Shown: in pieces, positions 186 to 20,485 of the stretch
How positions within the stretch are numbered: the first letter of the stretch is position 1
Layout of the letters: each line of letters opens with the position of its first letter
DNA from: Planctomycetota bacterium
GTDB lineage: Bacteria; Planctomycetota; MHYJ01; JACQXL01; JACQZI01
NCBI GenBank assembly: GCA_016207825.1
Contig: JACQZI010000005.1
Location: 1,122-65,121, forward strand
Length of the DNA: 64,000 bases
Direction of reading: 5' to 3'
Notes under the pieces: model-generated
Seen by the model: the letters and a program-made list of their open reading frames with translations, nothing else
Told to the model about the DNA's origin: nothing
The model's database searches: none
Position numbers and translations under genes: made by a program

Positions 186-2522
186 TTAAGGCGGCACGCC
201 GATAGCCGTGGCGTTTTCGAATTCTAAATAAGAGCTATCCGCTATCTTCACCCCGGCGCGGGTGCCGCCGCTGATATCGCTCGCCAGTTTATACACGATG
301 TAATAGGTCTTGGGAGTGGTTGTTACCTGCCAGCGGTTCATGTTGAGGTAACACGTGCCGTTGGTAAAATTACCTTTGCTGATAAAAGTATCACCTGCGT
401 CCCAGAAGCCGTTAGTATTCGTATCGCACCAGACCTGGACTTCTATCTTACAGGGTGTATTAACGCCGGTAACACCTTTATCTATGCGGAAACGTCTCCA
501 GCGGGTAGTGCCAGCGCCTATTTGCATATTGAACTTGACATAACAAACAGATTGCCCCATTCTTACCGGAGTATTGCCGTTGGTAAGCATCGTCCATGCG
601 GCTGTGGTGACAAGACTGGCAGGGTCCTCGTTTACAGTAATTGTAATTGCCTTGGAATCAGATAGTGTTTTAGACGTGGCGGTAAAAGTGACCATATAAT
701 TCCCGGATTGCGTACCGGAAGGCGTCCAATTAAATATGCCGCTGGCCAGGTTTAACGTTGCCCCTGTCGGAGTTGCGGTCATAGTATACGTTATCGGGTC
801 ACCATCCGGGTCATTAGCAGAAAGCGTAAAGGTTAATAATTGTTTTTCATTTATGCTCTTGTTTCCCGGCGAGGTCAGAACCGGCGGCCTGTCAACTACA
901 TATCCCACATACCAATAGGCTAATTGCGGGGCAACCGTGGTATTAGAGGTGGACAAGTTCGCCCGGAGTTTTATACCGGTGATACTGGTGAATGTCGCCG
1001 GATAAGCAGATGAAAGATTAGTCCCAGAAGAAACATTAGCAACCAATAGTGAATTATTCGACGAGCTTAAGACATCCACGGTCAAGAGTGTGTTAGCCGG
1101 CACACTGATAGTATAAGTCAAAACGCCCCAGGAAGAGACCACGGACGGCGCAATGGCTGAACCCAGGTAACTACCCGGAGTAAGAAATGGCGCCGTTCCC
1201 ACCACAGCCTTCCAGGTAGTCAAGGCGCCGATTTGGACAGGCGAATAGCGGTCGGTATTTGTCCCATCGCCCAAACTACCCAAACCATTATACCCCCAAG
1301 CCCAGAGCGTGCCGTCGGTCTTGACGGCTAAGTTGTGCTGAGTTCCGCAGGCAACTTGTTTCCAAGTGGTAGCGACGCCGACCTGGACAGGCGAGGTGCG
1401 TTGGGTTGTCGTCCCATCACCTAATTGGCCAGAGTTATTCCATCCCCACGCCCAGAGCGTGCCGTCGGCCTTGACAGCTAAGGTGTGCGCAGCCCCGCAG
1501 GCAACCTTACTCCAGGTGGTCAATGCCCCGATTTGGACAGGCGAGGTTCTTTGAGTGTATGTCCCATCGCCCAATTGGCCATTGAAATTATAACCCCATG
1601 CCCAGAGCGTGCCATCCGTCTTGATTGCCATGGTGTAAACATTCCCGCAGGCAACCTGTTTCCAGGTCGTCCCGGCTACCTGGACCGGTGAAAGCCGCTG
1701 GGTAGTCGTCCCATCGCCTAATTGACCCTGTCCATTATAACCCCAAGCCCAGAGCGTTCCGTCAGTCTTTATTGCTACGGTATGATTACCTCCGCAAGCG
1801 ACCTGTTTCCAGGTCGTTCCGGCTATTTGGACCGGGGACGATCTATTAGTCTGTGTCCCGTCGCCTAATTGGCCATTCCAATTATAACCCCAAGCCCAGA
1901 GCGTGCCGTCGGTCTTGACGGCTAAGGTGAAAGCATTCCCACCGGCGACCTGTTTCCAAGTGGTGAGCGCCCCGACCTGGACGGGCGAGTTTCTTTGAAT
2001 GGTCGTCCCATCACCCAACTGGCCATTAGAATTAAAACCCCAAGCCCAGAGCGTACCGTCGGTCTTGATTGCCATGGTGTGCTGAGCCCCGCAGGCGACC
2101 TTACTCCAGGTGGTCAATGCTCCGATTTGAGTTGGCGTGTTTTTATCAAGATTGTAGAGATAAGCCCCATCTCCGTCGTATTGGGCTGTTCCGCCATGGC
2201 CAAGCTGTCCGTATTCACCATAGCCCCAAGACCAGAGCGTGCCGTCTGTCCGCGGGCAGAGGCTGTGGTAAGCGTTTGCTGCGAGGATAAAGGCGGGCGT
2301 CTCCTGGCTGGTGTCTGATGATAGTGTGACCTCGGCAGAGCCGGCAGTGGCAACAGTATTCGTAAATGTGCCGTCGGTAAAGACGGTTTCGGACCAGCTG
2401 TCGGCAGCCAAATCCCAAGCACCAAATCCCAAACTCCAAATAATTAATAATACACAAAATCCAAAATTCCCCCGACGTGCGCCAGGACTACACTTCGCTT
2501 CGCAAACTTTCGTGTTACGCAT
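186..2522 (-). CDS. Exported paralog 1: signal peptide and 'ADSWSETVF' leader, seven or more RCC1-like beta-propeller blades (WxWGxNxxGQLGDG), then the family's conserved C-terminal module.
   Basis: 778-aa ORF. RCC1 blade motifs are visible. The C-terminal 190 aa align with the ends of ORFs 18158, 20542, 44353, 48731, 50696 and 53061 (…RWRRFRIDKG…CPDSKIEVQVWCDTNTNGFWDTGDTFI…YLEFENATAIGVP). Confidence 0.65.
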   Translation of the reverse strand: MRNTKVCEAKCSPGARRGNFGFCVLLIIWSLGFGAWDLAADSWSETVFTDGTFTNTVATAGSAEVTLSSDTSQETPAFILAANAYHSLCPRTDGTLWSWGYGEYGQLGHGGTAQYDGDGAYLYNLDKNTPTQIGALTTWSKVACGAQHTMAIKTDGTLWAWGFNSNGQLGDGTTIQRNSPVQVGALTTWKQVAGGNAFTLAVKTDGTLWAWGYNWNGQLGDGTQTNRSSPVQIAGTTWKQVACGGNHTVAIKTDGTLWAWGYNGQGQLGDGTTTQRLSPVQVAGTTWKQVACGNVYTMAIKTDGTLWAWGYNFNGQLGDGTYTQRTSPVQIGALTTWSKVACGAAHTLAVKADGTLWAWGWNNSGQLGDGTTTQRTSPVQVGVATTWKQVACGTQHNLAVKTDGTLWAWGYNGLGSLGDGTNTDRYSPVQIGALTTWKAVVGTAPFLTPGSYLGSAIAPSVVSSWGVLTYTISVPANTLLTVDVLSSSNNSLLVANVSSGTNLSSAYPATFTSITGIKLRANLSTSNTTVAPQLAYWYVGYVVDRPPVLTSPGNKSINEKQLLTFTLSANDPDGDPITYTMTATPTGATLNLASGIFNWTPSGTQSGNYMVTFTATSKTLSDSKAITITVNEDPASLVTTAAWTMLTNGNTPVRMGQSVCYVKFNMQIGAGTTRWRRFRIDKGVTGVNTPCKIEVQVWCDTNTNGFWDAGDTFISKGNFTNGTCYLNMNRWQVTTTPKTYYIVYKLASDISGGTRAGVKIADSSYLEFENATAIGVPP

Positions 2523-2537
2523 AAATCACCTCCATTT

Positions 2538-2750
2538 TCATACGGCGGTTTTCTTCCAGTTCACTAAACAGCCATTTTTAAATAAATAATGTTCTTTGGA
2601 ATTAGTTTGCGGGAAGAGATAGATCCATTCTTCTGAAACAGGTTCAGAATCTTTCTTGGGTTTAAGCCATTTAGCCACGGGCTTGCCGCGTAATGCCATA
2701 ATATCATCAGTGGTCAGGGGAAGCATTTTGTTTAATGTTGTTTTATTCAT
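2538..2750 (-). CDS. Small conserved protein of 70 aa, family member 1. It shares the motifs LRGKPxAK…EEWxY…EHYxFxNxxLVxWKKTAV with ORF 43541 and lies between a sigma-54 promoter and a paralog gene.
   Basis: The ORF has a conserved paralog at 43541..43789 and a deletion remnant at 18017..18130. Confidence 0.5.
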   Translation of the reverse strand: MNKTTLNKMLPLTTDDIMALRGKPVAKWLKPKKDSEPVSEEWIYLFPQTNSKEHYLFKNGCLVNWKKTAV

Positions 2751-2865
2751 AACAGTTCTCCTTGTAAGTATATAAGTTGATACGATAATAAGTTTATAAG
2801 GAGCATAGCCTCGTATTAACTTATCACCTTATTTCATCACCTTATTTCTTATCAACTATAATGTA

Positions 2866-2883
2866 TAGCAAATATCGTGCCAA
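2866..2883 (-). promoter_or_regulatory. Sigma-54 (-24/-12) promoter TGGCACGATATTTGCTATA, driving 2750..2538 and 2522..186.
   Basis: Reverse complement of 2866-2883 is ttggcacgatatttgcta. GG and GC are 12 nt apart, matching the TGGCAC-N5-TTGCW consensus exactly. Three EBP genes lie nearby. Confidence 0.7.
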
Positions 2884-3007
2884 TAATTCGCAATAATGGA
2901 GGAGAACTATAAATTATTTAATGCCTTGTAAATAAAGGGGTTAGAAAGCGAAAACAAGTCAAATAAGAATGTTTTTTGTATAATGAGCGTGGTAAAAATT
3001 CACGCCG

Positions 3008-5035
3008 TTACCGTTTGGTAACATTAGAGATGGTTATCTTTAATTGTTTTATCTTTTTGGAAAGAGTTGAACGGTCGCTGTTAAGTTGACAAGCCGCTTT
3101 GGTGATATTTCCATTGTTCTTTTTAAGAACTTCTATAATAATACTCTTTTCTATTTCATTACGTAATTCTTTAAGAGGACTATCCGATTTGATAGCAGAT
3201 TGGTTCATATTAATGTAACTCCGGATTGGGTTAGATAGCATTGATTCTTCAATAACATTAACATCCGGATACAATGCGCAGATGCGTTTTATCTCGTTTT
3301 CTAGTTCGCGGATATTGCCGGGCCAGGGGTAGGCGGTGAAAAGCGCTAACGCGCTGGGGGATATGTCAGCCCCGACGTTCGTCGGGACTTCGCTTCGCTC
3401 CGGAATTTCCTTACGGGAAAGAGAGCATTTTCGTAAAAAATGCTGAGCGAGGATGGGAATGTCATCCCCGCGGTCGCGAAGAGGAGGAAGATTGATTATA
3501 ATAGTATTGATACGATAAAACAGGTCTTCCCTGAATAACTTCTGCTTAACCATCTGCTCAATAGTCTGATTAGAGGCAAAGACAAAGCGGGTATCAACCG
3601 GAATAGGTTTTTGTCCACCCACTCTCCAGAGAAGTTTTTCTTCCATAACCCTAAGTAATTTTTGTTGCATAGACGGAGACATATTAGAAATCTCGTCTAT
3701 GAAAAGCGTTCCGCCTGAAGCGAGTTCAATATAACCTTTTTTATCTTCTATAGCGCCGGTAAAAGCGCCTTTGGCATGGCCGAAAAGCGTACTTTCAACA
3801 AGCGTTTCGGGAAGCACCCCGCAATTGAACGGTAAATAGGATTTGTTTATACGCAGGCTATTATTATGTATGGCATTGGCAATAAGTTCTTTTCCGGTTC
3901 CTGTTTCTCCCTGGATTAAAACCGGCATATCCGTAGGAGAAATCTTTTCTATAAGATGATAAATTTCTTGCATTGAGGGGGAATTGCCGACAATGGTATA
4001 TTTATTAACCGAATTTTCGTAACGGTCATCAAGGGTTTGAACCAATATCTGCGGGATAAACCTGGATTCATGTTTGGTTTTACCCTGTAATTGTTGATAG
4101 AGCCTGTCAAATTCCCTGGTTTTTTCATACAGCCAAATCGTATCCAGTTTAGATAAAACAGGCTTTATCCTGTTTTCTATAGAGCTGGCTTTACGCGACA
4201 GCCCTTTAAGAGAATAGCATTTGCATAAAAGGAATCCGGCTTCACAGGCAAGGTTATTTAATTTCAAGCATAATGCTTCTTTCATTATGTCCGGCAAAAT
4301 CCGAAACGCGGAATCCAACTGGTTTTCCAAAAGGTCAATGGCAGCAAGATGTATTTTCGCTTCAAGGATGCCGCGCGGGAAATCCGCTTGCTCGCATGCT
4401 TTAAGGGATATCTGAAAAGACTGGCGTGCCTGGCGATAGTCTTTTATTGACATCAGATACTCGCCTTTAATGTGCATATAATCCATGAAGTATATCTCGC
4501 CGGACGGGGACAGCAGGGAAGGTGAAAGTTTTTGTTCAATAATTTGCCCTGCTTTCCCCAAATCGTTTTTATATAAATAACAATAAGCTAAATTAATCAG
4601 GGTCGAAACATACATTTCCTTATTCATTGGAAACGTGTAACTCGTGAGTTTTTGGCAGTATTGCTCTACTTTATGGAATTGGCTTAAAGCCTGATTGATA
4701 TGCATCATAACCAGGAAATTAAGCCCCATCTTAAACGAAGCATACGCGACGCGAACTTGTTCAAGATTATGTTTTGAAGCGGTTAAGTATGCTTTATAGA
4801 AAGCATCCAGCGAGCGGGCATATTCCGCAAGGCTAAAACAAGCAAATCCCAGATGGCAATATAAAAGGTGTTCTTCAAAAGGCGAATAAGAAAGGGAAGG
4901 GAGTTTCCTTAGCGCCTTTTCGCCCAAACGCTTGGCGTTATCCCAATCCTGTTTATCCAAGGCGGACCTAATTTGTTCCAGACAATCAGATAATGGTTTA
5001 GATTCTCTTCGTTCACTACGAGTGCGTTTTGGCAT
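3008..5035 (-). CDS. Sigma-54-dependent transcriptional activator (EBP) with an N-terminal TPR-like domain, a central AAA+ domain (GETGTGKE Walker A; GAFTGA) and a C-terminal Fis-type HTH. There is no receiver or GAF domain.
   Basis: Motifs are visible in the translation. The true start is probably the ATG (MPKRTRSE) at 5035, because the TTG of the ORF-track start lies inside the -35 box. Confidence 0.85.
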   Translation of the reverse strand: MPKRTRSERRESKPLSDCLEQIRSALDKQDWDNAKRLGEKALRKLPSLSYSPFEEHLLYCHLGFACFSLAEYARSLDAFYKAYLTASKHNLEQVRVAYASFKMGLNFLVMMHINQALSQFHKVEQYCQKLTSYTFPMNKEMYVSTLINLAYCYLYKNDLGKAGQIIEQKLSPSLLSPSGEIYFMDYMHIKGEYLMSIKDYRQARQSFQISLKACEQADFPRGILEAKIHLAAIDLLENQLDSAFRILPDIMKEALCLKLNNLACEAGFLLCKCYSLKGLSRKASSIENRIKPVLSKLDTIWLYEKTREFDRLYQQLQGKTKHESRFIPQILVQTLDDRYENSVNKYTIVGNSPSMQEIYHLIEKISPTDMPVLIQGETGTGKELIANAIHNNSLRINKSYLPFNCGVLPETLVESTLFGHAKGAFTGAIEDKKGYIELASGGTLFIDEISNMSPSMQQKLLRVMEEKLLWRVGGQKPIPVDTRFVFASNQTIEQMVKQKLFREDLFYRINTIIINLPPLRDRGDDIPILAQHFLRKCSLSRKEIPERSEVPTNVGADISPSALALFTAYPWPGNIRELENEIKRICALYPDVNVIEESMLSNPIRSYINMNQSAIKSDSPLKELRNEIEKSIIIEVLKKNNGNITKAACQLNSDRSTLSKKIKQLKITISNVTKR

Positions 5036-5042
5036 GGTTCCA

Positions 5043-5071
5043 TTTATACAAAAAGAAGGGGCGACTGTCAA
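5043..5071 (-). promoter_or_regulatory. Sigma-70-type promoter TTGACA-17-TATAAA, 7 nt upstream of the EBP ATG, giving a leaderless or near-leaderless transcript.
   Basis: Minus-strand reading: cTTGACAgtcgccccttctttttgTATAAAtggaaccATG. The same architecture occurs at the other two EBP genes. Confidence 0.55.
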
Positions 5072-5244
5072 GACCCGTTAGAGATTTTATTTAACTATTG
5101 TTTCTCATCAAAACAACTTTTAATAATAATGCTTCATTTTTCTCCTAAACCAAAACTCCAGCAAATTTCTAACGGGTCAAGTTCAAATTTAACAACCATA
5201 GGATTATATTGACGAAAACATTGCTTTTCTTATAATTAAACATA

Positions 5245-6564
5245 GTGAAATCTCAAAGGCTCATGACTGTCTACCGCGAGCGCGCCATACTGGTCGGAAC
5301 TATTTCTCCCCGACACTTTGGGCGGGACTCCACTTACGTTTCGCCTAAAGACCATCAGGAAGATGATCCGCTGGCCGAACTGGAGCAACTGGCTATTACA
5401 GCCGGCGCCATCGTTGTGGAAAAGATAACTCAGAAAAAGCAAAAGCCTGATGTCGCTTATTATATCGGCCGTGGCAAGGTCTCCGAACTAAAAGAATTAG
5501 CGGATAAAAACGATATCGATACAGTGATTTTTGATAACGACCTCTCGCCCGGACAGATACGTAACCTGGAAAACGAGCTGAAGATAAAAGTGCTTGACCG
5601 GACGGAACTTATCCTGGATATCTTCGTCACGCACGCCAGGAGTTTGCAGGCAAAACTGCAGGTGGAGCTTGCACAGCTTGAATACACGCTTCCCCGCTTA
5701 ACGCACCTGTGGTCACATCTTTCCAAGATTGAAGGAGGCGTCGGCATCGGTCAGAGGGGTCCGGGCGAAAAGCAGCTGGAAATGGACCGCCGCATCGCGC
5801 GCGACCGCATCACCAAGCTGAAACGGGAAATCGAGGATATCAACCAACACCACAAGCGCACCACGGAAAACCGCTCGTCTTATTTCAATATCGCCCTCTT
5901 AGGATACACCAACGCCGGCAAATCCGCCCTGATGAACGCCTTAACCGGCACGGATTGCCTGGTGGAAAATAAATTATTCTCCACTTTGGACACCAAAACC
6001 CAACTATGGAACCCGGCGAATCATTATAAAGTCCTTTTAAGCGATACGGTCGGTTTTATCCGCAATCTTCCACACCACCTGGTCGCCTCTTTTAACGCAA
6101 CTTTACAGGAAGTCATTGATGCGGATTTGCTCCTCCATATTGTGGATGTCTTTCAGCCGGGAATCGACCAGCGTATCCAGGCAGTTGATAAAGTATTGGA
6201 AGAACTCGGTTGCAGCCAGAAACCGCGACTCTTGGTATTCAATAAGATAGATAAAATAGACCCGCTTGAGATGCAGATAGTCAGCAAGGAATTCCCGGAT
6301 TCTGTTTTCATTTCGGCTAAAAATAAACAAGGGCTTGATGCACTCGCCGGAAGAATCGTGGAATTCATCGCCAAAGACGAAACACTATCGACATTCTCCG
6401 TTTCAGCCGGAGACGGCAAGTTCCTTTCTTATCTGGAAGAAATGGGCAATATCATTTCAAAAACGTACCGTGACGGAATGGTCCGGATAAAAATACGCCT
6501 GTCTCCGCATGCTAAGGCAAAAGTGATGGGTTATCTGGAAGCCAATAAAAACAAGGCTAAATAG
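5245..6564 (+). CDS. hflX: GTPase HflX
   Basis: G1 GYTNAGKS, G3 DTVGF and the HflX N-terminal domain are present. The start may be the ATG at 5263. Confidence 0.85.
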   Translation: MKSQRLMTVYRERAILVGTISPRHFGRDSTYVSPKDHQEDDPLAELEQLAITAGAIVVEKITQKKQKPDVAYYIGRGKVSELKELADKNDIDTVIFDNDLSPGQIRNLENELKIKVLDRTELILDIFVTHARSLQAKLQVELAQLEYTLPRLTHLWSHLSKIEGGVGIGQRGPGEKQLEMDRRIARDRITKLKREIEDINQHHKRTTENRSSYFNIALLGYTNAGKSALMNALTGTDCLVENKLFSTLDTKTQLWNPANHYKVLLSDTVGFIRNLPHHLVASFNATLQEVIDADLLLHIVDVFQPGIDQRIQAVDKVLEELGCSQKPRLLVFNKIDKIDPLEMQIVSKEFPDSVFISAKNKQGLDALAGRIVEFIAKDETLSTFSVSAGDGKFLSYLEEMGNIISKTYRDGMVRIKIRLSPHAKAKVMGYLEANKNKAK

Positions 6565-6582
6565 CCTGGCTTTTGGAAATGA

Positions 6583-7239
6583 TTACCGGTCGGTGTTTTC
6601 TGCCACCTGTCCCTGTTTCAGCTTTCTTCTCATTTCATCCCATGGAAAAAGCTTGCCAGGGCAATCTGTCTTGCCTTTATCAACGCTTGAATGACCTATG
6701 ATATTTTCTAAAGGAATATGGTAATCCCTCTGCAGCCTTTTCAGTAAATCATTCAACGCGCTCATTTGCGCCTTGGTCGGCTTGTCTTTCTCAAAATCTC
6801 CCACCAGGCAGATACCGATTGATTGCTCGTTCATGTTGGCGTCAAAGCAATGCAGCCCGGGAATCTTCCTAAACCAGCGCTCGCCCACCTCAACCTCGCC
6901 GTTCCCGGATTTGGTGCCGTTGCCGATGACGTAATGATAGGCCAACCCGTCCTTCATTTTCATTTCTTCCCTGTGGTAACGGTCAAATATCCTGGCATTG
7001 CCGCTTTTGGTCGAGCTGTGATGAATCACCACGTATTTCCAGGGAGAGGAACTTATTTGAGTTGACGTTACGGCCTCCGGTATTTCTATTTTCATCTGAC
7101 CTTCCGCGGTGGATTTCTTTTTACCGGTAAGTTCTTCAAATGAATCGTTGATGTTTTTATCCGTTGTGAAAAGATATGTAGCGACCAGGAGCGATACGAC
7201 CGCACCGATGCTGAGGATAAAATCAAATATCCTGACCAT
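6583..7239 (-). CDS. N-acetylmuramoyl-L-alanine amidase of the Amidase_2 / PGRP-like family, with an N-terminal TM anchor.
   Basis: Motifs YHYVIGNG, SIGICLVGDF and GHSSVDKGKTDCPG. Confidence 0.7.
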   Translation of the reverse strand: MVRIFDFILSIGAVVSLLVATYLFTTDKNINDSFEELTGKKKSTAEGQMKIEIPEAVTSTQISSSPWKYVVIHHSSTKSGNARIFDRYHREEMKMKDGLAYHYVIGNGTKSGNGEVEVGERWFRKIPGLHCFDANMNEQSIGICLVGDFEKDKPTKAQMSALNDLLKRLQRDYHIPLENIIGHSSVDKGKTDCPGKLFPWDEMRRKLKQGQVAENTDR

Positions 7240-7293
7240 ACGAATATCATATCGTCAAGACATGGGAAACATCTTTAATGATTTAAGAAATGC

Positions 7294-7704
7294 TTATAAC
7301 CAGTTTCGTATTTTTATTAAAGCGGCTTCATGAATTGTTTCTTCGGTAAGAATATTTTGGAGAATATTCCTAAGGTTGCTGTTCGAAGCCAACTTAACGC
7401 ATTTCTTATAAATCGAAATGGCTTTCTTTTCTGAAGCAAGATGGCTCCGGACGATTTCCGCCGGGGTTTTCATGCCTTCCGTAAATCCAAAGTCCCATTC
7501 AGCCGTTCCGCCCAACCGGCTGATTTCCAGCGAAACCAAATCAGCATGCCGGCTTTCCGCCTGCCCGAAATTGTGGAAAAGCTGGACCAGCCATGGATGT
7601 TTCGCGAAAGATGTGGCGTGCCTCGGATACAGGAAAATATCGCTGTATTCCATCCGCAAAGCCTTTTGCAGGTAGGTAACAAGTTTTTCCTTATTATCCG
7701 CCAT
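7294..7704 (-). CDS. Ferritin-like / rubrerythrin-like small protein
   Basis: Weak ferritin-like helical pattern with candidate E/H ligand residues. Low certainty. Confidence 0.35.
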   Translation of the reverse strand: MADNKEKLVTYLQKALRMEYSDIFLYPRHATSFAKHPWLVQLFHNFGQAESRHADLVSLEISRLGGTAEWDFGFTEGMKTPAEIVRSHLASEKKAISIYKKCVKLASNSNLRNILQNILTEETIHEAALIKIRNWL

Positions 7705-7707
7705 TTA

Positions 7708-7902
7708 TTATTGGATCTTAATCGCTTCAGCCGGGCATGATTCAGCTGCTTCCTTGCAGCAAGCTTCTGCGCTCGCCGGGACCGGATTAACCTTGACCTT
7801 GGCAATATCATCCGTTCCCATCTCAAAAACGTCAGGGCATGTTTCCACGCAAAGCCCGCAACTGGTGCATGCTTCTTTATCTACAATTGCTTTCATGTTC
7901 AT
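7708..7902 (-). CDS. 4Fe-4S ferredoxin
   Basis: CTSCGLCVETCP motif plus a second Cys cluster, in 64 aa. Confidence 0.8.
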   Translation of the reverse strand: MNMKAIVDKEACTSCGLCVETCPDVFEMGTDDIAKVKVNPVPASAEACCKEAAESCPAEAIKIQ

Positions 7903-11500: not shown

Positions 11501-11792
11501 AAAACGCCCCTGTTGTGTTTCAACTGTCTCATTTATCATAAAGCCTCATTTACTTTAAAAGAAACCGATTTTTCCAAACTTCAATATATCTCACTACCTA
11601 ATACCATATAATCATTGGTGTTATGATAAGGTAGGATTTAAATATCTGTCTCAATAACAATAATTTAAGCCAGAACAGTCTCATTAATAGCGATTAAATG
11701 ATACAGTTTTATCACATAATTTAACTATCGTCTTTTATTTAATGCCTTTATTTATAATGGGTTAGATACATCTACAGCATTTATACTCTTAT

Positions 11793-11808
11793 TGGCACGA
11801 TATTTGCT
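11793..11808 (+). promoter_or_regulatory. Sigma-54 promoter TGGCACGATATTTGCTATA upstream of the DOMON operon.
   Basis: The core is identical to those of the other three sigma-54 promoters. Confidence 0.65.
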
Positions 11809-11820
11809 ATATTATAGCTT

Positions 11821-13548
11821 ATGTTGCATACTAGAATGATAACACCCCTATCAAAGATAAATCTCTTTATCAAAGGAAGGGCAAACTGGTTTACAATAGC
11901 GCTCTTTTTTTTATTATTAAGCATCATCAGTTTTGGTATTAGCGGTTTTTGCAATAAATATGAAGGAAATGAAACCGAAGTCGGAAGCAGCGGGATAAGC
12001 CAGATTACTTCGCCTGCACCGCCCGGCGGAACGGTTGATATCCCGATTACCGCCACACTCTCGTGGGAAATTGTTCCCGGTGCAACTCATTATGCGGTTT
12101 ATTTCGGTTTAACTACGGACGGCTTGAGCCCGGTTACAAATACGATGTTGACTAATTATGAGCCGGGAATTCTTGAATATAACACTACTTATTACTGGCG
12201 GGTAGATCCTAATAACATTAATCAGGTTGTCATCGGACAATTGTGGTCTTTTACTACGATGGCTCAAGCAACAAATTCTCCGCCGCAGGCAAACACTCCC
12301 AATCCGGCAAATGGCGCCACTAATATTCCAGCTGCCTGCCAGCTTTCCTGGGCTGCGGCAACCGGGACGAATTCTTATACGATTTATTGCGGAACATCCT
12401 CTCCTCCTCCCTTAGTAACAACCTCCACAGTAACAGCTTATCATCCGGGTATTCTTGCCTACAACACCACCTATTACTGGCGGATAGATTCCAATAATAA
12501 CGCTGGGACCACCCAGGGAGTAGTATGGAGTTTTAAAACCAAAGCACCGCCGGTAAATCCGCCAGCTCAGGCAACAAATCCAACGCCGGCGAATGGCGCA
12601 ACGAATATTATTGCAAATACCCAACTATCATGGGCTATGGCCACCGATGCCACTTCTTATGACGTGTATTTCGGAACAGTTAACCCGCCGCCGCTCAAAA
12701 TAACCACCCTTGACACAACCTATAACCCGGGAACGCTTAATAATAATACCGCTTATTATTGGCGGGTAAATTCCAAGAATATCGTCGGAACCACCCAGGG
12801 AGCAGTATGGAACTTTACCACACGGGCACAAGAAACCGCTCCCAATCCGCCATCCGGATTAACGGCTACGGCATTATCATCTTCCCAGGTGGTCATCTCC
12901 TGGACCGATAATTCCGGCGATGAAACCGGCTTTATCGTGGAACGCAAAACCGGTCCCGCCGGCACATATGCGGTAATTACCACTCTGCCTGCAAATACCG
13001 GTGTGTACACGGATATCAGCGCAGCGCCCTTCACCACCTACTATTACCGGCTGGCGGCATGCAATGCCTCAGGAAATAGCGCTTATTCCAATGAAGCTTC
13101 TGCCGTCACTTTCAACCGGATTGCTTCCGGCACTATGGTCCTGCAGTGGAAAGCCGAAGGCGACAATCTCAGAATCAGGGTCAGCGCACCGGCTACCGGC
13201 TGGATCTCTGTCGGGTTTGACGCGACTAATAGGCATCAGGACGCAAATATCATCATAGGTTACATCAGTAACGGCAGGCTGTTTATCCAAGACGATTACG
13301 GCACAGGCTCCACCACCCACTCCTCCGATATTTCGCTGGGCGGGACCGATAACATCACGGAGAAAACCGGCGCCGAAGCCAACGGGACCACCGAACTGGT
13401 TTTTACGATTCCGCTTAATTCAGGCGATTCACGCGATAAACCGCTCGTTGTCGGCAATAGTTATAATGTAATACTGGGTTACGGCAACACGGATAATTTT
13501 ACCGGCATGCATGCGTTCGCTAGAACTATAAATATAAAGATTCAATGA
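11821..13548 (+). CDS. Exported protein with three Fn3-like repeats of about 90 aa (…ATxYxVYFGT…YYWRV), one canonical Fn3, and a C-terminal DOMON-like domain.
   Basis: The C-terminal 170 aa are paralogous to the C-termini of 13577 and 15147. The start codon is uncertain because the sigma-54 transcription start site abuts the ATG. Confidence 0.55.
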   Translation: MLHTRMITPLSKINLFIKGRANWFTIALFFLLLSIISFGISGFCNKYEGNETEVGSSGISQITSPAPPGGTVDIPITATLSWEIVPGATHYAVYFGLTTDGLSPVTNTMLTNYEPGILEYNTTYYWRVDPNNINQVVIGQLWSFTTMAQATNSPPQANTPNPANGATNIPAACQLSWAAATGTNSYTIYCGTSSPPPLVTTSTVTAYHPGILAYNTTYYWRIDSNNNAGTTQGVVWSFKTKAPPVNPPAQATNPTPANGATNIIANTQLSWAMATDATSYDVYFGTVNPPPLKITTLDTTYNPGTLNNNTAYYWRVNSKNIVGTTQGAVWNFTTRAQETAPNPPSGLTATALSSSQVVISWTDNSGDETGFIVERKTGPAGTYAVITTLPANTGVYTDISAAPFTTYYYRLAACNASGNSAYSNEASAVTFNRIASGTMVLQWKAEGDNLRIRVSAPATGWISVGFDATNRHQDANIIIGYISNGRLFIQDDYGTGSTTHSSDISLGGTDNITEKTGAEANGTTELVFTIPLNSGDSRDKPLVVGNSYNVILGYGNTDNFTGMHAFARTINIKIQ

Positions 13549-13576
13549 GCTTTTTTAAGCAGAAAGGATTCTCGGC

Positions 13577-14353
13577 ATGAAAAAGATATTAGTGGTTTTA
13601 GGCTTGCTGGCATTACTCGCCCAGTCCGTATCGGCAGATGAAGCAGAAAACGCGCCATCCGAATTAACGGCAACTTCCTTATCTTCTTCCGAGGTCGTTA
13701 TCTCTTGGTCGGATAATTCCTCTGATGAAACCGGCTTTGTCATCGAACGCAAAACTGCTGTCACCGGCACTTATGCGGCGATTGTCACAACGACCGCCAA
13801 TACGACCGTTTATACCGATACCGCGCTGTCATCATTCACCACGTATTATTACCGCCTCTCGGCAGTTAATGACACGGAAACGAGCGCCTATTCCAATGAG
13901 GTTCCTGCCGTTACATTCAACCGGACGACTGCCGGTGATATGGTTCTGCAGTGGAAAGCCGAAGGCAATAATCTCAGAATCAGGGTCAGCGCACCGACTG
14001 CCGGCTGGGTTGCAGTCGGTTTTAAAACTGCCGCGGGCAAAAAGGACGCTAATATCATCATGGGATACGTTAAAAAGAACGGGGTATTTATCGAGGATAA
14101 TTACGGCATAGGCGCCACGAACCACGCCGCCGATACTGCCGGGGGAGGAACCGATAACGTCACGGAGAAAACCGGCACCGAAGCCAAAGGGACCACCGAA
14201 CTGGTTTTCACTATCCCGCTCGATTCCGGCGATGACCGGGATAAAAAACTCGTCGTCGGCAATACCTACAATACGATGCTGGCTTACGGCAAAACGGATA
14301 ATTTTACCGGCATGCATACGTTTTTCAGGGTCATAAAGATAAAAATCCAATGA
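13577..14353 (+). CDS. Exported Fn3 plus DOMON-like domain protein
   Basis: Signal peptide; paralog of the C-terminal half of 11821. Confidence 0.6.
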   Translation: MKKILVVLGLLALLAQSVSADEAENAPSELTATSLSSSEVVISWSDNSSDETGFVIERKTAVTGTYAAIVTTTANTTVYTDTALSSFTTYYYRLSAVNDTETSAYSNEVPAVTFNRTTAGDMVLQWKAEGNNLRIRVSAPTAGWVAVGFKTAAGKKDANIIMGYVKKNGVFIEDNYGIGATNHAADTAGGGTDNVTEKTGTEAKGTTELVFTIPLDSGDDRDKKLVVGNTYNTMLAYGKTDNFTGMHTFFRVIKIKIQ

Positions 14354-15132
14354 TAAAAAAAATATTGCCTATCTTGCTCCTGGTTGGATTAATTATCCTG
14401 CCGGTCTTGGCGGATGAACCGGAAGAGGAGACGGAAGAAGAATCCCTGGAATATGTTTATTTTCCTTCAGAAATGATTAACCTGAAAATGCCCAACCAGC
14501 AGGAGCCGCATTCGCTGATTTTCATCATCACGCACCGCTTCTACGGTGAGTTAAACCATAACCCCATGGAAACCGCCAACCTCTTATTCGGCATTAAATA
14601 TATCGCTTCTCCCAAGGTGGAACTGGAAGCGCTCTACGGAATGAACCAGAATGAATACAGCATCGGCGCCGGTTATTATTTCCTGAACTCAGGGATTATA
14701 CACGGCCAATTCAATGCCACCCTTTTTGATTATAAGGACATTGCCTTTGAAGAAAGAAGCATCAATGCTTTTTACCAGCTCTCTATGGATACCAAGCCGC
14801 TTTTCAAGCATGTTACGCCGGTGGTTAATGCCGGTTATGACGGCTACTATGAAAGGTTCGGCTACGGCTTCGGCTTAAAAATAGCTTTCAATATCGCGAA
14901 CTCAACGGTAAAAAAAGTAAACATCATCAGCGAATATTATCCTATTACGGATCCCGAAGCAGGAATCACCCAGCCCAAGCCGGTCTCCTGTTTCGGCATC
15001 GGCATAGATACCTTCCGGCACAATTTTGTCCTCCAGGTGACTAACGGCAACGAAGCGGGTGTCAGGCGGCTTATGCTGGGCGCGCCTGACGACGAGCTTC
15101 ACTTCGGTTTTAATATACTCGTGAAATTCTGA
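14350..15132 (+). CDS. Putative outer-membrane beta-barrel protein
   Basis: Signal peptide, alternating amphipathic strands and a C-terminal …ILVKF. Confidence 0.45.
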   Translation: MIKKILPILLLVGLIILPVLADEPEEETEEESLEYVYFPSEMINLKMPNQQEPHSLIFIITHRFYGELNHNPMETANLLFGIKYIASPKVELEALYGMNQNEYSIGAGYYFLNSGIIHGQFNATLFDYKDIAFEERSINAFYQLSMDTKPLFKHVTPVVNAGYDGYYERFGYGFGLKIAFNIANSTVKKVNIISEYYPITDPEAGITQPKPVSCFGIGIDTFRHNFVLQVTNGNEAGVRRLMLGAPDDELHFGFNILVKF

Positions 15133-15146
15133 AAGGATGGCGTGGC

Positions 15147-15683
15147 ATGAAAAAAATAGTATTGGCTCTTTTCTGTCTGGCAATAATGGCAATCAATAAT
15201 GGTTTCAGTTGCAATACCCACGACGAACAGGTGTCATCCGGCTCTTCCGGCGCCGCCGTAGGACAGGTGACGGCCGCGGGTGTTACCATGAAGTGGTCTG
15301 TGGTGGGAACCGATTTATCCGTAACACTCAGCGCCCAGACTGCCGGCTGGGTCGCGGTCGGGTTTAACCCTACCAACAGGCACCAGGGCGCCAATATTAT
15401 CATCGGCTATGTCAGCGGAGGCGTGGCATTTATCGAGGACAACTTCGGCAACGGCCCTACCACCCATGTTACCGATGGAATCCAAAACGTTACGGAAAAA
15501 ACCGGGACCGAGGCCGGCGGCATTACCGAAATAAGTTTTAAAATACCGCTTAATTCCGGCGACGCCCAGGACCAGCCGCTGGTTGTTGGGACCAACTGCA
15601 CGATAATATTGGCTTACGGTCCGGCGGATAATTTCACCACCCAACACACCAGTATGGGGACTGCGCTTATCAGAATCCAATAA
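15147..15683 (+). CDS. Lipoprotein with a DOMON-like domain
   Basis: Lipobox GFSC; paralog of the 13577 C-terminus. Confidence 0.55.
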   Translation: MKKIVLALFCLAIMAINNGFSCNTHDEQVSSGSSGAAVGQVTAAGVTMKWSVVGTDLSVTLSAQTAGWVAVGFNPTNRHQGANIIIGYVSGGVAFIEDNFGNGPTTHVTDGIQNVTEKTGTEAGGITEISFKIPLNSGDAQDQPLVVGTNCTIILAYGPADNFTTQHTSMGTALIRIQ

Positions 15684-15710
15684 TCCAGGCGATGATTTCC
15701 CGTTTACTAC

Positions 15711-15738
15711 TTGACAATCACCCATTTTTTCTATATAA
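15711..15738 (+). promoter_or_regulatory. Sigma-70-type promoter (TTGACA…TATATAA) for the EBP gene, with a short leader.
   Basis: ttgacaatcacccattttttctatataaccaatatcATG. Confidence 0.5.
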
Positions 15739-15746
15739 CCAATATC

Positions 15747-17771
15747 ATGAAAACCGGAAAGCCTCTATCCGACCAGCCCGACAGCCTGCCTGCCGGAAAG
15801 GCAGGTCTGGCGGGTTACCTGGAACAAATCAAATCCGCCAATACCAAACAAAACTGGATTCAAGTAAAGCGCCTGGGGAAAATCGTTTTAAAAAACCTGC
15901 CTAATCTGGCTTATTCTCCATCCGAAGAATATCTTTTGTTTCGCCGGCTGGGTGTCGCCCATTATCATTTGGCGGAATATTCAAACTCCCTGGACTTTTT
16001 CTACAAAGCATTCCTGGCCGCCTTCAGGCATAAACTCAACCAAGCCGATATCGCCTGCGCGATTTTTATGATGGGAAGCAATTTTATCGCTATCAGGAAT
16101 ATACCGCAAGCCCTGGCTCATTTCCAGAAAGTGGAAGAATACTATAAAAAATACGGGGATAATAATCCTCCGATGGATAAAGATATCTATATTGATACGC
16201 TTTTAAGCCTGGCGTATTGTTATCTATATAAAAATGATACGGAAAAAGCACGTGAGATTATAGAAGAAAAACTTTCTGTTTACCGGCCGGACGCGTTTGA
16301 CGGAATCAGCTTTATAGATTACACCCACCTTAAAGGGGAATATCTGGCGGCAGCCGAAAAATACGCCGATGCCCGTAAATGTTTTGACGAATGTATCACG
16401 ATGGGAAAACAAATTAACTTCCCGGTAAGCATCCTCGAAGCAAAAATACACCTGGCCCTAATTGATATCATGGAAAGCGAAACAGATAGCGGCATCCAAA
16501 CCTTGCGCGCCGTAATGAAAGAAAGCCGGAAGTTAAAGCTAAACGACCTCTTCTGTGAATCAGGGCTCCTTTTAAGCAAATGTTACATCATTCAAGGTCT
16601 TCCCGATAAAGCCGTGCTTATCGAAAACAGGATTAAGCTTAATTTGTCCAAACTTGACACGGTTTGGCTCTATGAAAAAATGCGCGAGTTCGAAAAACTC
16701 TACCGCCAATTAACCACCGTATCGAAAGTCAAATCGCAAATCGCTCCCGAAATACTCGTTCGCACCCTTAATTCACGTTATGAAAAATCACCCCATAAAG
16801 AAATTGTCATAGGCGTCACTCCCTTAATGCAGGAAATCTGGCAACTGTTAGAAAAAATTGCTCCGACCGATTTGCCCGTTTTAATCCAGGGGGAAACCGG
16901 CACGGGAAAAGAACTCATCGCCCGCGCTATCCACCAAAACAGCCTGCGGGCATCCCGTTCCTGCCTCGGATTTAATTCCGGAGCGGTTGCCGAAACTCTT
17001 TTGGAAAGCACGCTTTTCGGCCATGCCAAAGGCGCTTTTACCGGCGCTATTGAAGAGAAAAAAGGCTATATTGAACTCGCCTCCGGCGGAACGCTTTTCG
17101 TGGATGAGATTGCCAATATGTCGCTTGGTATGCAGCAAAAACTTCTAAGGGTCATGGAAGAAAAACTTCTCTGGCGTGTCGGTGACTCAAAACCAATTCA
17201 GATAGATACCCGTTTTATCTTTGCCAGCAATCAGGATATTGAGCAGATGGTCAAGAACAAAACCTTCCGTGAAGACCTGTTCTATCGTATCAACGCCATT
17301 GTAATTAACCTTCCGCCTCTGCGCGAACGCGGGGATGACATTCCCTTGCTGATAAACCACTTCCTCTCCAAATATAAAACGCATGACGCCCAACGCATGA
17401 CGCAAGACTCACAACGCATAACGCCCGACGCACAACGCCTCCTCTCCTCCTACCCCTGGCCCGGCAATATCCGCGAACTGGAAAACGAGATAAAACGTAT
17501 CTGCGTATTATACCCAAATGCAAAAACCATCGAAGAACCAATACTCTCAGATTCAATCAGAAATTATAAAAAAACGCCCGAACCGTTTAAACAAATCTTG
17601 AACATGAAAGAAGCAACTGATGCCTTCCAAAGGAGCCTTATCATCGAAACGATTAGCCAATGCCAGGGCAATATGACCCAAGCCGCCCGCCAGCTCGGCT
17701 ATGCGCGCCAAAGCCTTTACGATAAAATGAAACAGCTTAAGATAACTCCGGAAACTGTCGTGAAAAAGTAA
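15747..17771 (+). CDS. Sigma-54-dependent activator (TPR-AAA+-HTH), paralog 2
   Basis: GETGTGKELIARAIH, GAFTGA and a C-terminal HTH. An (AQRxT)n low-complexity linker lies between the AAA+ and HTH domains. Confidence 0.85.
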   Translation: MKTGKPLSDQPDSLPAGKAGLAGYLEQIKSANTKQNWIQVKRLGKIVLKNLPNLAYSPSEEYLLFRRLGVAHYHLAEYSNSLDFFYKAFLAAFRHKLNQADIACAIFMMGSNFIAIRNIPQALAHFQKVEEYYKKYGDNNPPMDKDIYIDTLLSLAYCYLYKNDTEKAREIIEEKLSVYRPDAFDGISFIDYTHLKGEYLAAAEKYADARKCFDECITMGKQINFPVSILEAKIHLALIDIMESETDSGIQTLRAVMKESRKLKLNDLFCESGLLLSKCYIIQGLPDKAVLIENRIKLNLSKLDTVWLYEKMREFEKLYRQLTTVSKVKSQIAPEILVRTLNSRYEKSPHKEIVIGVTPLMQEIWQLLEKIAPTDLPVLIQGETGTGKELIARAIHQNSLRASRSCLGFNSGAVAETLLESTLFGHAKGAFTGAIEEKKGYIELASGGTLFVDEIANMSLGMQQKLLRVMEEKLLWRVGDSKPIQIDTRFIFASNQDIEQMVKNKTFREDLFYRINAIVINLPPLRERGDDIPLLINHFLSKYKTHDAQRMTQDSQRITPDAQRLLSSYPWPGNIRELENEIKRICVLYPNAKTIEEPILSDSIRNYKKTPEPFKQILNMKEATDAFQRSLIIETISQCQGNMTQAARQLGYARQSLYDKMKQLKITPETVVKK

Positions 17772-17896
17772 CACCTGTCAGATTTCCCTGACACCACCCG
17801 TCAAAACTAATTCATACTATATTTGCTCTTTCAGCCTAACTCCTTTATTCATATCAAATTAGGGCTTGTCGGTATTTCTCTGTTTTTAGGCATTTC

Positions 17897-17912
17897 TGGC
17901 ACGATATTTGCT
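17897..17912 (+). promoter_or_regulatory. Sigma-54 promoter TGGCACGATATTTGCTATA
   Basis: Identical to the promoter at 2866..2883 and marks the start of a roughly 400-bp inverted duplicate. Confidence 0.7.
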
Positions 17913-18016
17913 ATACATTATAGTTGATAAGAAATAAGGTGATAAGTTAATACGAGGCTATGCTCCTTATAAACTTATTATCGTATCAACTTATATACTT
18001 ACAAGGAGAACTGTTA

Positions 18017-18130
18017 TGAATAAAACAACATTAAACACCTGTCTCGGAAGAATGGATTTATCTCTTCCCGCAAACTAATTCTGAAGAGCATTATTTCTTT
18101 AAAAATGGCTGTTTAGTGAGCTGGAAGAAA
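18017..18130 (+). pseudogene. Deletion remnant of the small conserved protein gene. MNKTTLN joins out of frame to …EWIYLFPQTNSEEHYFFKNGCLVSWKKTAV.
   Basis: The DNA is nearly identical to 2750..2538 except for an internal deletion of about 100 bp. Confidence 0.6.
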
Positions 18131-18157
18131 ACCGCCGTATGAAAATGGAGGTGATTT

Positions 18158-20485
18158 ATGCGTAACACGAAAGTTTGCGAAGCGAAGTGCGAAACGACAG
18201 TGGAGTCCCGACCTAATCGGGGTAGTCCCGACGCACGTCGGGGGAATTTTGGATTTTGTGTATTATTAATTATTTGGAGCTTGGGTTTTGGTGCTTGGGA
18301 TTTGTGTGCGGACTCCTGGTCCCAGACCACCTTTACCGATGGGACATTTAATAGCACGATGAGCGCTACCAGTGGCAGCGATGTAAGTCTTTTTGTATCC
18401 ATTGATGCTGGTAATGGCACGGATGGTGCAATAACCGTTGCCGCGGCAAAAAATATTAATACGGATACCATTGCCGCCGGCAGGACTGTCGCCGATGGCT
18501 GGAACTCACGCGTTTCCGCCCTTACGGCAAATACAGCTACATTAGTAACCACACCTCCTGTTAATACTTTTGCAGTCGGTGACGAAGTTATTTTAATCAG
18601 TCTCAAAGGCATCTCTGCGGCTTATGGTAATGTTGGATTATATGAATTCCTTCGTGTCCAGTCAGTTGCTGGTAATATAATTACCTTTACCGCCAATAAA
18701 ATTAACTGGTACGGTGATGGCGCTAATGATACCAATGTCGGAACAAATCAAGTCGTGATGCTCCAGCGGGTGCCTAATTATACTGATGTAACGATTAATA
18801 TCGGCGGCTCACTTGCCTGTTCGGCTTTTGATGGGACAAAGGGAGGGATTCTTATCGTTAAAGCTACCGGAACAGTTACGGTAAATGCGCTGAATGGTAT
18901 AAATGCGAGTGACCGCGGATTTAGGGGCGGCGTTGGAGGCGGTTACTCCAGTCGTTCGGGTGGTGGTGAGTCATATAATGGCACGGGTGGTGCCGGTGGT
19001 GTAAATGGAGATGGATATAGTCCTCGTAGCGTTGGTTTAGCGGGTCAATCCGGCCAAGGTGGCGGTGGCGGCGCTGGTGCGTATGATAGTACTCTTGGTA
19101 CTGCAGCCGCTGGCGCGCTTGGTTCAGGTGGTGGTGCTGGCGGCGGCAGTGGTTACTACTCCAGTAACGATATTGGTGGTGGTGGCGGCGGCGGCGGTAA
19201 TGGAGGAACAGGCGGTGGCGGCGTGGGTGGCGGAGGTACGGCCGGGGCTGGTTCAGGAACTAACGGTGGTAATGGTAGTGCGGGGGTGGGTACCCGCTCT
19301 GCCGGTGGCGGCGGCGGCGGTGGGAACGATGGTCGGGCAGATTCTTCCGGGCTGGGTAATCGGGCATATATGGGTGGCGGTGGTGGTGCCGGTGGCGGCG
19401 GTTTTGAAGGTACGACATCTACCGCCGGACAACCCGGAGGCAATGGCGGAGGTATAATATTTATCTGTGCTAATAATATTAACGTTGCCTCAGGTGCATC
19501 TATTGCCGCAAATGGAGCAAACGGAGGAGCTGTCGGCACCTATGTAGGTGGTGGTGGCGGTGGGGCTGGTGGTTCTATAATTCTGAACTCAATCAGCGTG
19601 TCTAATTCAGGTTCCGTCACTGCTATTGGCGGTTCAGGAGGTTCCAATGCTCTTTCCGGCGGCGCGGGTGGTGGTGGTCGAACATATGCTCGGTATGTGG
19701 CTTTCAGCGGCACTGCACCAACCCCAAATTACTCAAGTGGAAATCCATCATCATATACTACTGCCGGCACCTATGTTTCATCGCTGATTAATTTGACTGG
19801 TCTTTCCTCTTGGGGTATTTTAACCTATACACGAACCGCTCCGGCAAATACCACCTTTACAGTTGACGTCTTAAAGGCCATAGATAATTCCATCCTGGTT
19901 TCTAACGTTGCTTCCGGCGTTAATCTTTCATCGGTTCTTCCATCGCCGTTATGCTATGCCATCAGGCTCCGGGCTAACTTTTCTACTTCAGATAATACCC
20001 AAACCCCGACCCTTTCTGACTGGGGAATAAACTACACAAGCGGCGGGACGACCATCACCACCACCAACTGGACGGATTTGGTTAACGGGCAATCCGTCCG
20101 GATGGGACAATCTATCGCCCACGTTAAATTTGAAATGAAAACATTTGATGGCACTGCCCGCTGGAGACGTTTCCGTATCGATAAAGGATTAAAAACATAC
20201 ACAAACCTTGCCTGCCCGGATTCTAAAATAGAAGTTCAGGTCTGGTGCGATACAAATGCCAATGGTTTCTGGGATACCGGCGATACGTTCATCGCTAAAG
20301 GCAATTTTACCAACGGCACGTGTTATCTCAATATGAAACAATGGCAGGTAACGACTACCACCAAGACTTATTATATCGTGTATAAATTAGCCAGTGATAT
20401 CAGCGGCGGCACCCGCGCCGGGGTGAAGATAGCGGATAGCAGCTATCTTGAATTTGAAAATGCCACTTGTATCGGAGTGCCATAA
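18158..20485 (+). CDS. Exported paralog 2: a leader identical to paralog 1 plus an 11-codon hairpin-element insertion, a Gly-rich central region (GGGxGG runs, probably beta-helix) and the conserved C-terminal module.
   Basis: The N-terminus MRNTKVCEAKC…RRGNFGFCVLLIIWSLGFGAWDL matches ORF 186..2522. The C-terminal 300 aa align with 48731, 50696 and 53061. Confidence 0.65.
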   Translation: MRNTKVCEAKCETTVESRPNRGSPDARRGNFGFCVLLIIWSLGFGAWDLCADSWSQTTFTDGTFNSTMSATSGSDVSLFVSIDAGNGTDGAITVAAAKNINTDTIAAGRTVADGWNSRVSALTANTATLVTTPPVNTFAVGDEVILISLKGISAAYGNVGLYEFLRVQSVAGNIITFTANKINWYGDGANDTNVGTNQVVMLQRVPNYTDVTINIGGSLACSAFDGTKGGILIVKATGTVTVNALNGINASDRGFRGGVGGGYSSRSGGGESYNGTGGAGGVNGDGYSPRSVGLAGQSGQGGGGGAGAYDSTLGTAAAGALGSGGGAGGGSGYYSSNDIGGGGGGGGNGGTGGGGVGGGGTAGAGSGTNGGNGSAGVGTRSAGGGGGGGNDGRADSSGLGNRAYMGGGGGAGGGGFEGTTSTAGQPGGNGGGIIFICANNINVASGASIAANGANGGAVGTYVGGGGGGAGGSIILNSISVSNSGSVTAIGGSGGSNALSGGAGGGGRTYARYVAFSGTAPTPNYSSGNPSSYTTAGTYVSSLINLTGLSSWGILTYTRTAPANTTFTVDVLKAIDNSILVSNVASGVNLSSVLPSPLCYAIRLRANFSTSDNTQTPTLSDWGINYTSGGTTITTTNWTDLVNGQSVRMGQSIAHVKFEMKTFDGTARWRRFRIDKGLKTYTNLACPDSKIEVQVWCDTNANGFWDTGDTFIAKGNFTNGTCYLNMKQWQVTTTTKTYYIVYKLASDISGGTRAGVKIADSSYLEFENATCIGVP

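Follow-up and report, generated by a model that had tools for sequence, protein, structure and literature searches.

Candidate cis-linked sigma-54 cassettes with TPR-type enhancer-binding proteins ahead of exported-protein genes in a Planctomycetota contig

Sigma-54 promoters and their enhancer-binding proteins

The stretch of DNA analysed here, 64,000 nucleotides of contig JACQZI010000005.1 from the Planctomycetota assembly GCA_016207825.1 (the window), carries three loci at which a gene for a sigma-54 enhancer-binding protein (EBP) stands directly upstream of a candidate sigma-54 promoter, followed by a small gene, intact or decayed, and by genes for exported proteins (the cargo). EBP A (3008-5035, reverse strand) precedes promoter A (2867-2882, reverse), a small gene (2538-2750, reverse) and a cargo gene for an exported RCC1-repeat/He_PIG protein (186-2522, reverse). 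EBP B (15747-17771, forward) precedes promoter B (17897-17912, forward), a decayed small gene (18016-18138, forward) and two exported paralogs (18158-23004, forward), one glycine-rich and AgmC-like, the other of LamG/DUF2341 type. EBP C (41333-43360, forward) precedes promoter C (43488-43503, forward), a small gene (43541-43789, forward), and then a small membrane-anchored protein and a DUF4082 protein (43858-45702, forward). The cargo of all three loci includes proteins with a common C-terminal domain. A fourth promoter, D (11793-11808, forward), stands ahead of an operon (11821-15683, forward) that encodes FN3-DOMON proteins (two genes), a DUF5777 beta-barrel and a DOMON protein.

These four promoters are the only exact matches in the window to the 16-mer TGGCACGWTATTTGCT, versus 0.08 expected, and allowing up to two mismatches yields nothing beyond them. 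A preliminary description of this DNA had reported such a four-copy motif, of the form TGGCACG(A/T)TATTTGCT, and it stands, exact at all four positions. All four show the GG (-24) and GC (-12) elements at the fixed spacing TGGCAC-N5-TTGCW, and the use of sigma-54 has been reported for Planctomycetota (PMC12316311). The same description saw in the near-identity of the promoters a single dedicated regulon. This most likely does not hold, as each EBP has a private dyad of its own (see below) and the likeness of the promoters comes from the consensus and from the duplication of A and B. Promoters A and B lie within an inverted duplication (2363-2901 versus 17878-18350, 85-100% identical) that reaches from about 20-35 nt 5' of the promoter to the signal-peptide region of the cargo, and because this duplication is recent the two cannot be counted as independent. 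Judged from sequence, the shared 16-mer consists for the most part of the consensus for sigma-54, together with a spacer that is usual in the lineage, and the identical 16-mer is also present in contigs from other samples.

The duplication raises the question of whether the repeated motif is a mere by-product of it, without promoter function, as might be thought from copies A and B. Yet copies C and D share with A and B only the core motif and a block resembling a site for integration host factor (IHF), the motif recurs at the corresponding position in 15 contigs of other samples and metagenome-assembled genomes (MAGs) whose intergenic DNA is otherwise diverged, and three intact EBPs with a GAFTGA loop are encoded alongside. 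Such an explanation is thus highly improbable, a duplication artefact being effectively excluded by the conservation across loci. A fifth exact match to TGGCAC-N5-TTGCT (46618-46633) lies inside a PD40-repeat coding region, where it encodes part of DGTFIAF, without upstream dyad or IHF-like block, and is probably a coding coincidence.

That EBP genes adjoin three of the motif copies, as had been claimed, is borne out by their domain content. Each of the three 675-aa proteins contains Sigma54_activat, AAA_lid_14 and HTH_8 domains, with E-values of 3e-65, 2e-64 and 7e-64 for the sigma-54 interaction AAA+ domain (PF00158) and of about 1e-10 for the Fis-type helix-turn-helix (HTH; PF02954). Their alignment shows invariant Walker A (GETGTGKE), Walker B (LF(I/V/M)DE(I/V)) and loop (KGAFTGA) motifs, and all features of the bacterial EBP family that can be read from a sequence thus appear to be present in the three, none of which reaches an NCBIfam equivalog cut-off. 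They are mutually 52-58% identical, A and B sharing 58%. EBPs A and B are old paralogs, unlike the recently duplicated promoter modules that accompany them.

The N-terminal part of about 320 residues is where these EBPs depart from the familiar ones. The preliminary description had read it as a tetratricopeptide repeat (TPR) domain replacing the usual receiver, GAF or PAS sensor, a reading for which Pfam gives weak matches only, and which structure prediction corroborates. The AlphaFold2 model of residues 1-345 of EBP A, computed from a six-sequence alignment, consists of 16 helices at a mean confidence (pLDDT) of 88. Foldseek places the TPR domain of LGN/Pins first among its structural neighbours (E 8e-8, TM 0.69), followed by a designed eight-repeat consensus TPR (TPR8, E 5e-6) and by the peptide receptors NprR and Rap. 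We can therefore confidently model the N-domain of these EBPs as an eight-repeat TPR superhelix. Standing in place of a receiver, GAF or PAS sensor, it is most likely an input domain that binds a protein or a peptide.

Each EBP gene has in addition its own sigma-70-like promoter, located by eye: TTGACA-N17-TATAAA-N7-ATG for A (5043-5071, reverse), TTGACA-N17-TATAAC-N7-ATG for B (15711-15739, forward) and TTGACA-N17-TATATT-N8-ATG for C (41296-41324, forward). The common form is TTGACA-N17-TA(T/A)A(A/T)N, with 7-8 nt between its end and the ATG, within the 7-10 nt previously given. An equivalent TTGACA-N17 arrangement precedes the EBP genes of four loci from other contigs (L002, L004, L008 and L009), which brings the total to seven loci. 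None of the three window EBP genes is preceded by a Shine-Dalgarno sequence, and given the spacing of 7-8 nt, their mRNAs are therefore predicted to be leaderless, a prediction that extends to at least four orthologs at other loci. A scan of the window for consensus sigma-70 promoters and terminators showed no enrichment (37 versus 31.8 expected), and the EBP promoters escaped it on account of their -10 hexamers, whose last base is A or C.

Enhancer-like dyads and the IHF-like block

We aligned 19 promoters, anchored on TGGCAC and with distances counted from its T, and found a dyad centred between -108 and -117 in 12 of them, while 300 shuffles gave a mean of 2.3 and a maximum of 7. In the window these candidate enhancers are GCGTGAATTTTTACCACGC for A (2987-3005, reverse, centre -114), TGTCAGATTTCCCTGACA for B (17776-17793, forward, centre -112.5) and GTGTAGACTTTTTTCCACAC for C (43370-43389, forward, centre -108.5), each of them unique in the window. 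The arms of such dyads vary, and their centre is rich in T. The dyad of B is the inverted repeat that had been proposed as an activator site; it was recovered and is retained as a candidate. Another proposed activator site, a triplicate TGTCTCA(A/T)T, is not supported: GTCTCAWT does occur at 11526, 11648 and 11678, but the window holds 7 copies versus 3.5 expected, which is no significant excess. A second dyad, over the EBP stop codon, is conserved rather than copy-specific. It reads GTTACCAAACGGTAAC and lies over the stop codon of EBP A (3007-3022, reverse, centre about -132), and a GTTAC-N6-GTAAC dyad is also found at -132 to -138 in L001, L003, L004, L005 and L007. The dyads were ruled out as intrinsic terminators, their stems being short and AT-rich and lacking a U tract.

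Between dyads and promoter lies a block of the form TAAC-N-CTT(T/G)ATTTATAAG-N-GTTA, whose start falls between -53 and -63. In 10 of the 19 promoters (0.27 expected, shuffle maximum 2), and in the same orientation, the reverse complement of this block departs from the IHF consensus WATCAANNNNTTR by one mismatch or none, the fit being perfect in L008 and L009. In the window it is present at promoters A (2931-2943, reverse; reverse complement AATAAAGGGGTTA, one mismatch), B (17837-17849, forward), C (43430-43442, forward) and D (11740-11752, forward). Taken together, dyads, IHF-like block and promoter would correspond to the textbook layout of enhancer, bend site and promoter. Promoter D has the block, but it lacks a small gene and all three window dyads, and no EBP gene adjoins it upstream; we consider it a putative orphan sigma-54 promoter ahead of the DOMON operon. 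An Rfam scan of the leaders gave no match, the sole match being a tRNA at 61357.

The small first-cistron protein and its recurrence

The first gene behind promoters A and C encodes a small protein, of 70 aa in A and of 82 aa in C (P0006), the two being 57% identical. In copy B the corresponding gene has suffered an internal deletion of about 86 nt and a frameshift, with a stop after 20 codons. The preliminary description had recognised all three, including the decay of the third, whose start is to be corrected from 18017 to 18016. A stable, GC-rich hairpin (43805-43848, forward; -28.5 kcal/mol, z -3.1, no U tract) separates small gene C from the next gene. It may act in processing or in stability and so determine how much small protein is made relative to cargo. 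Among the hairpins behind small genes, that of C alone does better than shuffles, those of A, B and L017 being no better than these.

The small proteins belong to no Pfam or NCBIfam family. A word-based search returned one relative besides the protein itself, and a profile search of 1.84 billion representatives returned 62 proteins at E<=1e-3, 44 of them at E<1e-10. About 60 cluster representatives make up the family, nearly all of them stand-alone proteins of 66-95 aa. The matches span about 47-109 aa, excepting P0048, a retrotransposon-like protein of 2851 aa whose 10 'hits' are a spurious repeat match and which was rejected as a member. A profile search of the genome contigs with the small-protein alignment found nothing. 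The family signature reads PPLTxDDIxxLRGKP...EEWxY...ExYxFxNGxLxxW, with P24, W42, Y44 and F57 invariant. Signal peptides and lipoboxes are absent from the family, the N-termini being short and hydrophilic (MNKTTLNK...) and devoid of a hydrophobic h-region. The AlphaFold2 model (pLDDT 79) shows one helix and four strands, an alpha-beta fold similar to that of BamE/SmpA_OmlA. The likeness to BLIP and BamE lies, in this model, at the level of the fold only: among 56 members examined, PF04355 (SmpA_OmlA) matched none even at E<=5, and DUF2845 matched four weakly (Pfam, E<=5).

Using the small protein as bait, we retrieved 14 contigs (L001-L014), of which 12 are distinct, as L009/L010 and L013/L014 carry the same proteins. 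A sigma-54 motif (TGGCA(C/T)-N5-TTGC, at most one mismatch) lies 28-135 nt 5' of the small open reading frame in all 14. L001, L002, L004, L005, L007, L008, L009, L011, L012 and L013 have a Sigma54_activat+HTH_8 gene directly 5' of the small gene and in the same orientation, and L006 is the only locus with enough upstream DNA in which no such EBP adjoins the small gene. A hidden Markov model (HMM) of the window TPR domain matches each adjoining EBP that has its N-terminus, with E-values from 1e-50 to 1e-167 (the EBP of L001 is a fragment without N-terminal region and falls outside this count). For an unbiased test in the reverse direction, GTDB species genomes were searched with the EBP TPR domain. 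Six loci were recovered, from three MAGs of groundwater Planctomycetota, and three of the six have DNA beyond a complete EBP. All three have the sigma-54 promoter (L017, L020 and L022). It is followed by the small gene in L017 and L020, while in L022 it leads straight into a gene for a signal-peptide protein. Two further homologs of the EBP N-domain, P0003 and P0004, sit at contig ends and are uninformative about downstream genes. The preliminary description had made the partnership of small protein and EBP depend on its recurrence with this EBP family in other genomes, and this recurrence was indeed found, in independent contigs and MAGs. The cassette is typical of a clade of uncultured Planctomycetota, and in it the small gene is frequent but dispensable: intact in window copies A and C, decayed in B, present in L017 and L020, absent from L022.

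Two of these loci show peculiarities of their own. In L022, the one cassette without a small gene, the EBP is split by a frameshift near the HTH (4491-4841), for which either decay of the cassette or an error of assembly may account. In L002 (4132-4847 and 5054-5510), a HEPN/nucleotidyltransferase pair is inserted between the EBP gene and the enhancer, and two small-protein paralogs follow the sigma-54 promoter in tandem.

The cargo differs widely from locus to locus. RCC1/FN3, LamG, TonB-dependent receptor, HEAT, transglutaminase-TPR and STAS plus pilin-like proteins are encoded at the other loci, nearly all of them with signal peptides. Since cargo types vary while the small protein is constant, it is with the EBP and the promoter that it is constantly associated, and not with the cargo. 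This bears on the possibility that the small protein serves the exported cargo from the cytoplasm, as a chaperone, an export pilot or an assembly factor, co-transcribed with its cargo for reasons of stoichiometry and without effect on the EBP. The gene is always the first cistron, the remaining products of the operon carry signal peptides, the gap between small gene and cargo is short at many loci (9-22 nt), and the BLIP/BamE fold is a protein-binding module, all of which would suit such a function. Against it, the small protein is conserved across cargo families that are mutually unrelated, none of the five other window paralogs that have the common C-terminal domain (starting at 20467, 44353, 48731, 50684 and 53061) comes with its own small gene, no functional copy accompanies cargo B or the cargo of L022, and the neighbours that remain constant are again EBP and promoter. 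We therefore regard a cargo-dedicated role as unlikely.

Alternatively, the TPR domain might sense something else, either an imported peptide as in the RRNPP regulators or a host or partner protein, with the small protein as a passenger that has an envelope or stress function. The peptide receptors NprR and Rap among the structural neighbours of the N-domain are in line with this, as are the promoters that do without a functional small gene (L022, copy B and promoter D). The linkage is nevertheless tight, a TPR-type EBP standing beside the small gene wherever upstream DNA suffices, with the exception of L006, and a sigma-54 promoter being present at every such locus; the family was seen in no other context, and its 62 matches are, P0048 apart, all short. 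A mere passenger thus seems quite improbable.

Proposed mechanism and relation to known systems

We propose that A, B and C are three autonomous, cis-linked sigma-54 cassettes, each made of a constitutively expressed TPR-EBP, private dyads, a bend site and an adjacent promoter, and we consider this very likely. The EBP gene would be transcribed from its own sigma-70-type promoter into a leaderless mRNA, and the Fis-type HTH of its product would bind the dyads just past its own stop codon, the conserved one at about -135 and the copy-specific, T-centred one at about -113. The IHF-like bend site at about -60 would bring the EBP to the sigma-54 holoenzyme at TGGCACGATATTTGCT, where ATP hydrolysis by the AAA+ ring would open the promoter. 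The resulting transcript would encode first the small cytoplasmic protein of BLIP/BamE-like fold and then exported, outer-membrane and surface proteins. The small protein, which is linked to EBP and promoter and not to a type of cargo, may in turn bind the EBP and modulate it by feedback, as an anti-activator or a co-activator. What is observed are sequence features, folds, synteny and positional conservation; from these we infer that the EBP binds DNA, that the DNA is bent and what the small protein does. Taken alone, the feedback of the small protein on the EBP is a tentative proposal to which we give somewhat less than an even chance, and for the model as a whole we estimate a probability of about 0.5. 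A more specific version, in which the small protein is the physiological TPR ligand and reports the export or assembly status of the cargo to sigma-54 transcription, would form a hitherto undescribed two-part switch by analogy with the chaperone/co-activator circuits (IpgC-MxiE type) of type III secretion systems, with the difference that it is fused to an AAA+ activator; we hold it to be doubtful.

Several observations weigh against this model. Family scans of the window proteins found no rpoN, and the window has no ihf gene either. The TAAC...GTTA symmetry of the -60 element could mark a second EBP site and not one for IHF. The loci fetched via the small protein are biased toward containing its gene, which is moreover dispensable, being decayed in copy B despite an intact EBP B and absent from L022 and promoter D. 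Small genes A and B are near-identical while EBPs A and B share only 58% of their residues, which argues against strict pair specificity. Finally, in a mirror-tree comparison the distances of the small protein follow the EBP as a whole, with no sign of co-evolution specific to the TPR domain (r 0.61 for TPR versus 0.73 for AAA+; partial r 0.10, p 0.32), a result that would also suit the chaperone role considered above.

The wiring of the proposed cassettes recalls the classical sigma-54 promoters with upstream activator sequences and an IHF site, such as NtrC-glnAp2, NifA-nifH and XylR-Pu. The GAFTGA-type AAA+ domain, the C-terminal Fis-type HTH, the dyads more than 100 bp upstream and the element resembling the IHF consensus between them and the promoter are common to both. 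Unlike in those systems, the sensor is an eight-repeat TPR domain and not a receiver, GAF, PAS or V4R domain, the EBP is encoded directly 5' of its own target with an enhancer overlapping its stop codon, and its mRNA is predicted to be leaderless.

With PspF-PspA and HrpS-HrpV, where the operon that the EBP activates also encodes a modulator of that EBP, the likeness is one of gene position only: beside a dedicated EBP, the sigma-54 operon begins with the gene for a small protein that does not bind DNA, an arrangement that would fit a feedback loop. The small protein is BLIP/BamE-like, without the coiled coil of PspA or the fold of HrpV, and no similarity to PspA was found in sequence or fold. 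PspF and HrpS also lack a sensor domain, whereas the EBPs described here have a TPR domain.

The PrsK/PrsR/PrsT system associated with PEP-CTERM proteins has a sigma-54 motif before paralogous exported proteins, a dedicated activator and a TPR component (PMC1569441). It shares with the cassettes the exported paralogs with a common C-terminal domain, the sigma-54 promoters with an upstream motif, the dedicated activator and the TPR. In contrast to it, the cargo of the window ends in YLEFENATCVGVP, with no PEP motif and no transmembrane/arginine tail, the TPR is fused to the EBP instead of forming a separate lipoprotein, and neither a histidine kinase nor a receiver is involved. The PrsR equivalog TIGR02915 is not reached (score 300.5 versus a cut-off of 502.6).

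As to its parts, the sensor resembles the TPR superhelices of the RRNPP proteins NprR and Rap and of LGN/Pins, which clamp extended peptides or proteins, but identity is only 14-17%, the output is an AAA+ sigma-54 activator and not an HTH or a phosphatase, and, unlike for RRNPP, the host is a planctomycete and not a Firmicute. The small protein differs from BLIP, from BamE and OsmE (SmpA_OmlA) and from the type VI secretion immunity protein BtiO in that it has no signal peptide or lipobox, is predicted to be cytoplasmic and stands in a regulatory context. A literature search, whose limited coverage makes it no proof of novelty, turned up no account of an EBP of the TPR type that is accompanied by a small partner protein, and it is the type of sensor and the family of the small partner that appear undescribed, the wiring being classical.

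Sigma-54 activators serve as a model for signal-gated AAA+ transcription, and their known inputs are mostly receiver, GAF, PAS or V4R domains, or none. A TPR input combined with a small protein expressed from the activated promoter would, if confirmed, constitute a class of EBP gated by a protein ligand. The compact and self-contained cassette of activator, private enhancer and promoter could be of use in the design of orthogonal circuits, and it offers a first regulatory handle on the large families of exported surface proteins in uncultured groundwater Planctomycetota. The cassettes are also in keeping with the idea that sigma-54 controls the exterior of the cell (PMC3162934). Their mechanism is in general a standard one, and the advance is incremental unless the link between the small protein and the TPR domain is proven.

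Exported paralogs and repeats of the window

The exported paralogs of the window number seven (186-2522 on the reverse strand, 18158-20485, 20467-23004, 44353-45702, 48731-50596, 50684-52984 and 53061-55343), and their common C-terminal domain of about 110 aa is 72-86% identical among them. This domain has no sequence match in Pfam, NCBIfam or the PDB, and it did not turn up in cargo from the other loci. It may serve for anchoring or sorting in a lineage-specific way. Several of the paralogs start with PL(S/L)RGVRGV-type stretches. The n-region of the cargo B signal peptide (18190-18235) contains an extra palindromic GTCCCGAC...GTCGGGG that is absent from the paralogs compared (2470-2500 on the reverse strand and 50684-50760), which suggests that small palindromic elements were inserted into the 5' coding regions of the paralogs.

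Tandem arrays of a 21-nt unit, for example TGTGCCCGCAAGGGCAAAACC, lie directly 3' of three cargo genes with the shared domain (1-172, 23031-23467 and 45750-46060), with up to about 15 copies and a small hairpin possible in each unit; the third array is translated as a heptad repeat in the open reading frame 45824-47086. The remainder of the window has housekeeping genes, among them those for an HflX-like GTPase, PNPase, DinB, TatD/radical SAM proteins and an ECF sigma factor. Two more repeats, a 44-nt tandem repeat of about six copies (58749-59056) and an 83-nt direct repeat of two copies that are 90-93% identical (39939-40104), were also found, the latter just 5' of the DinB-like gene (40106-41299).

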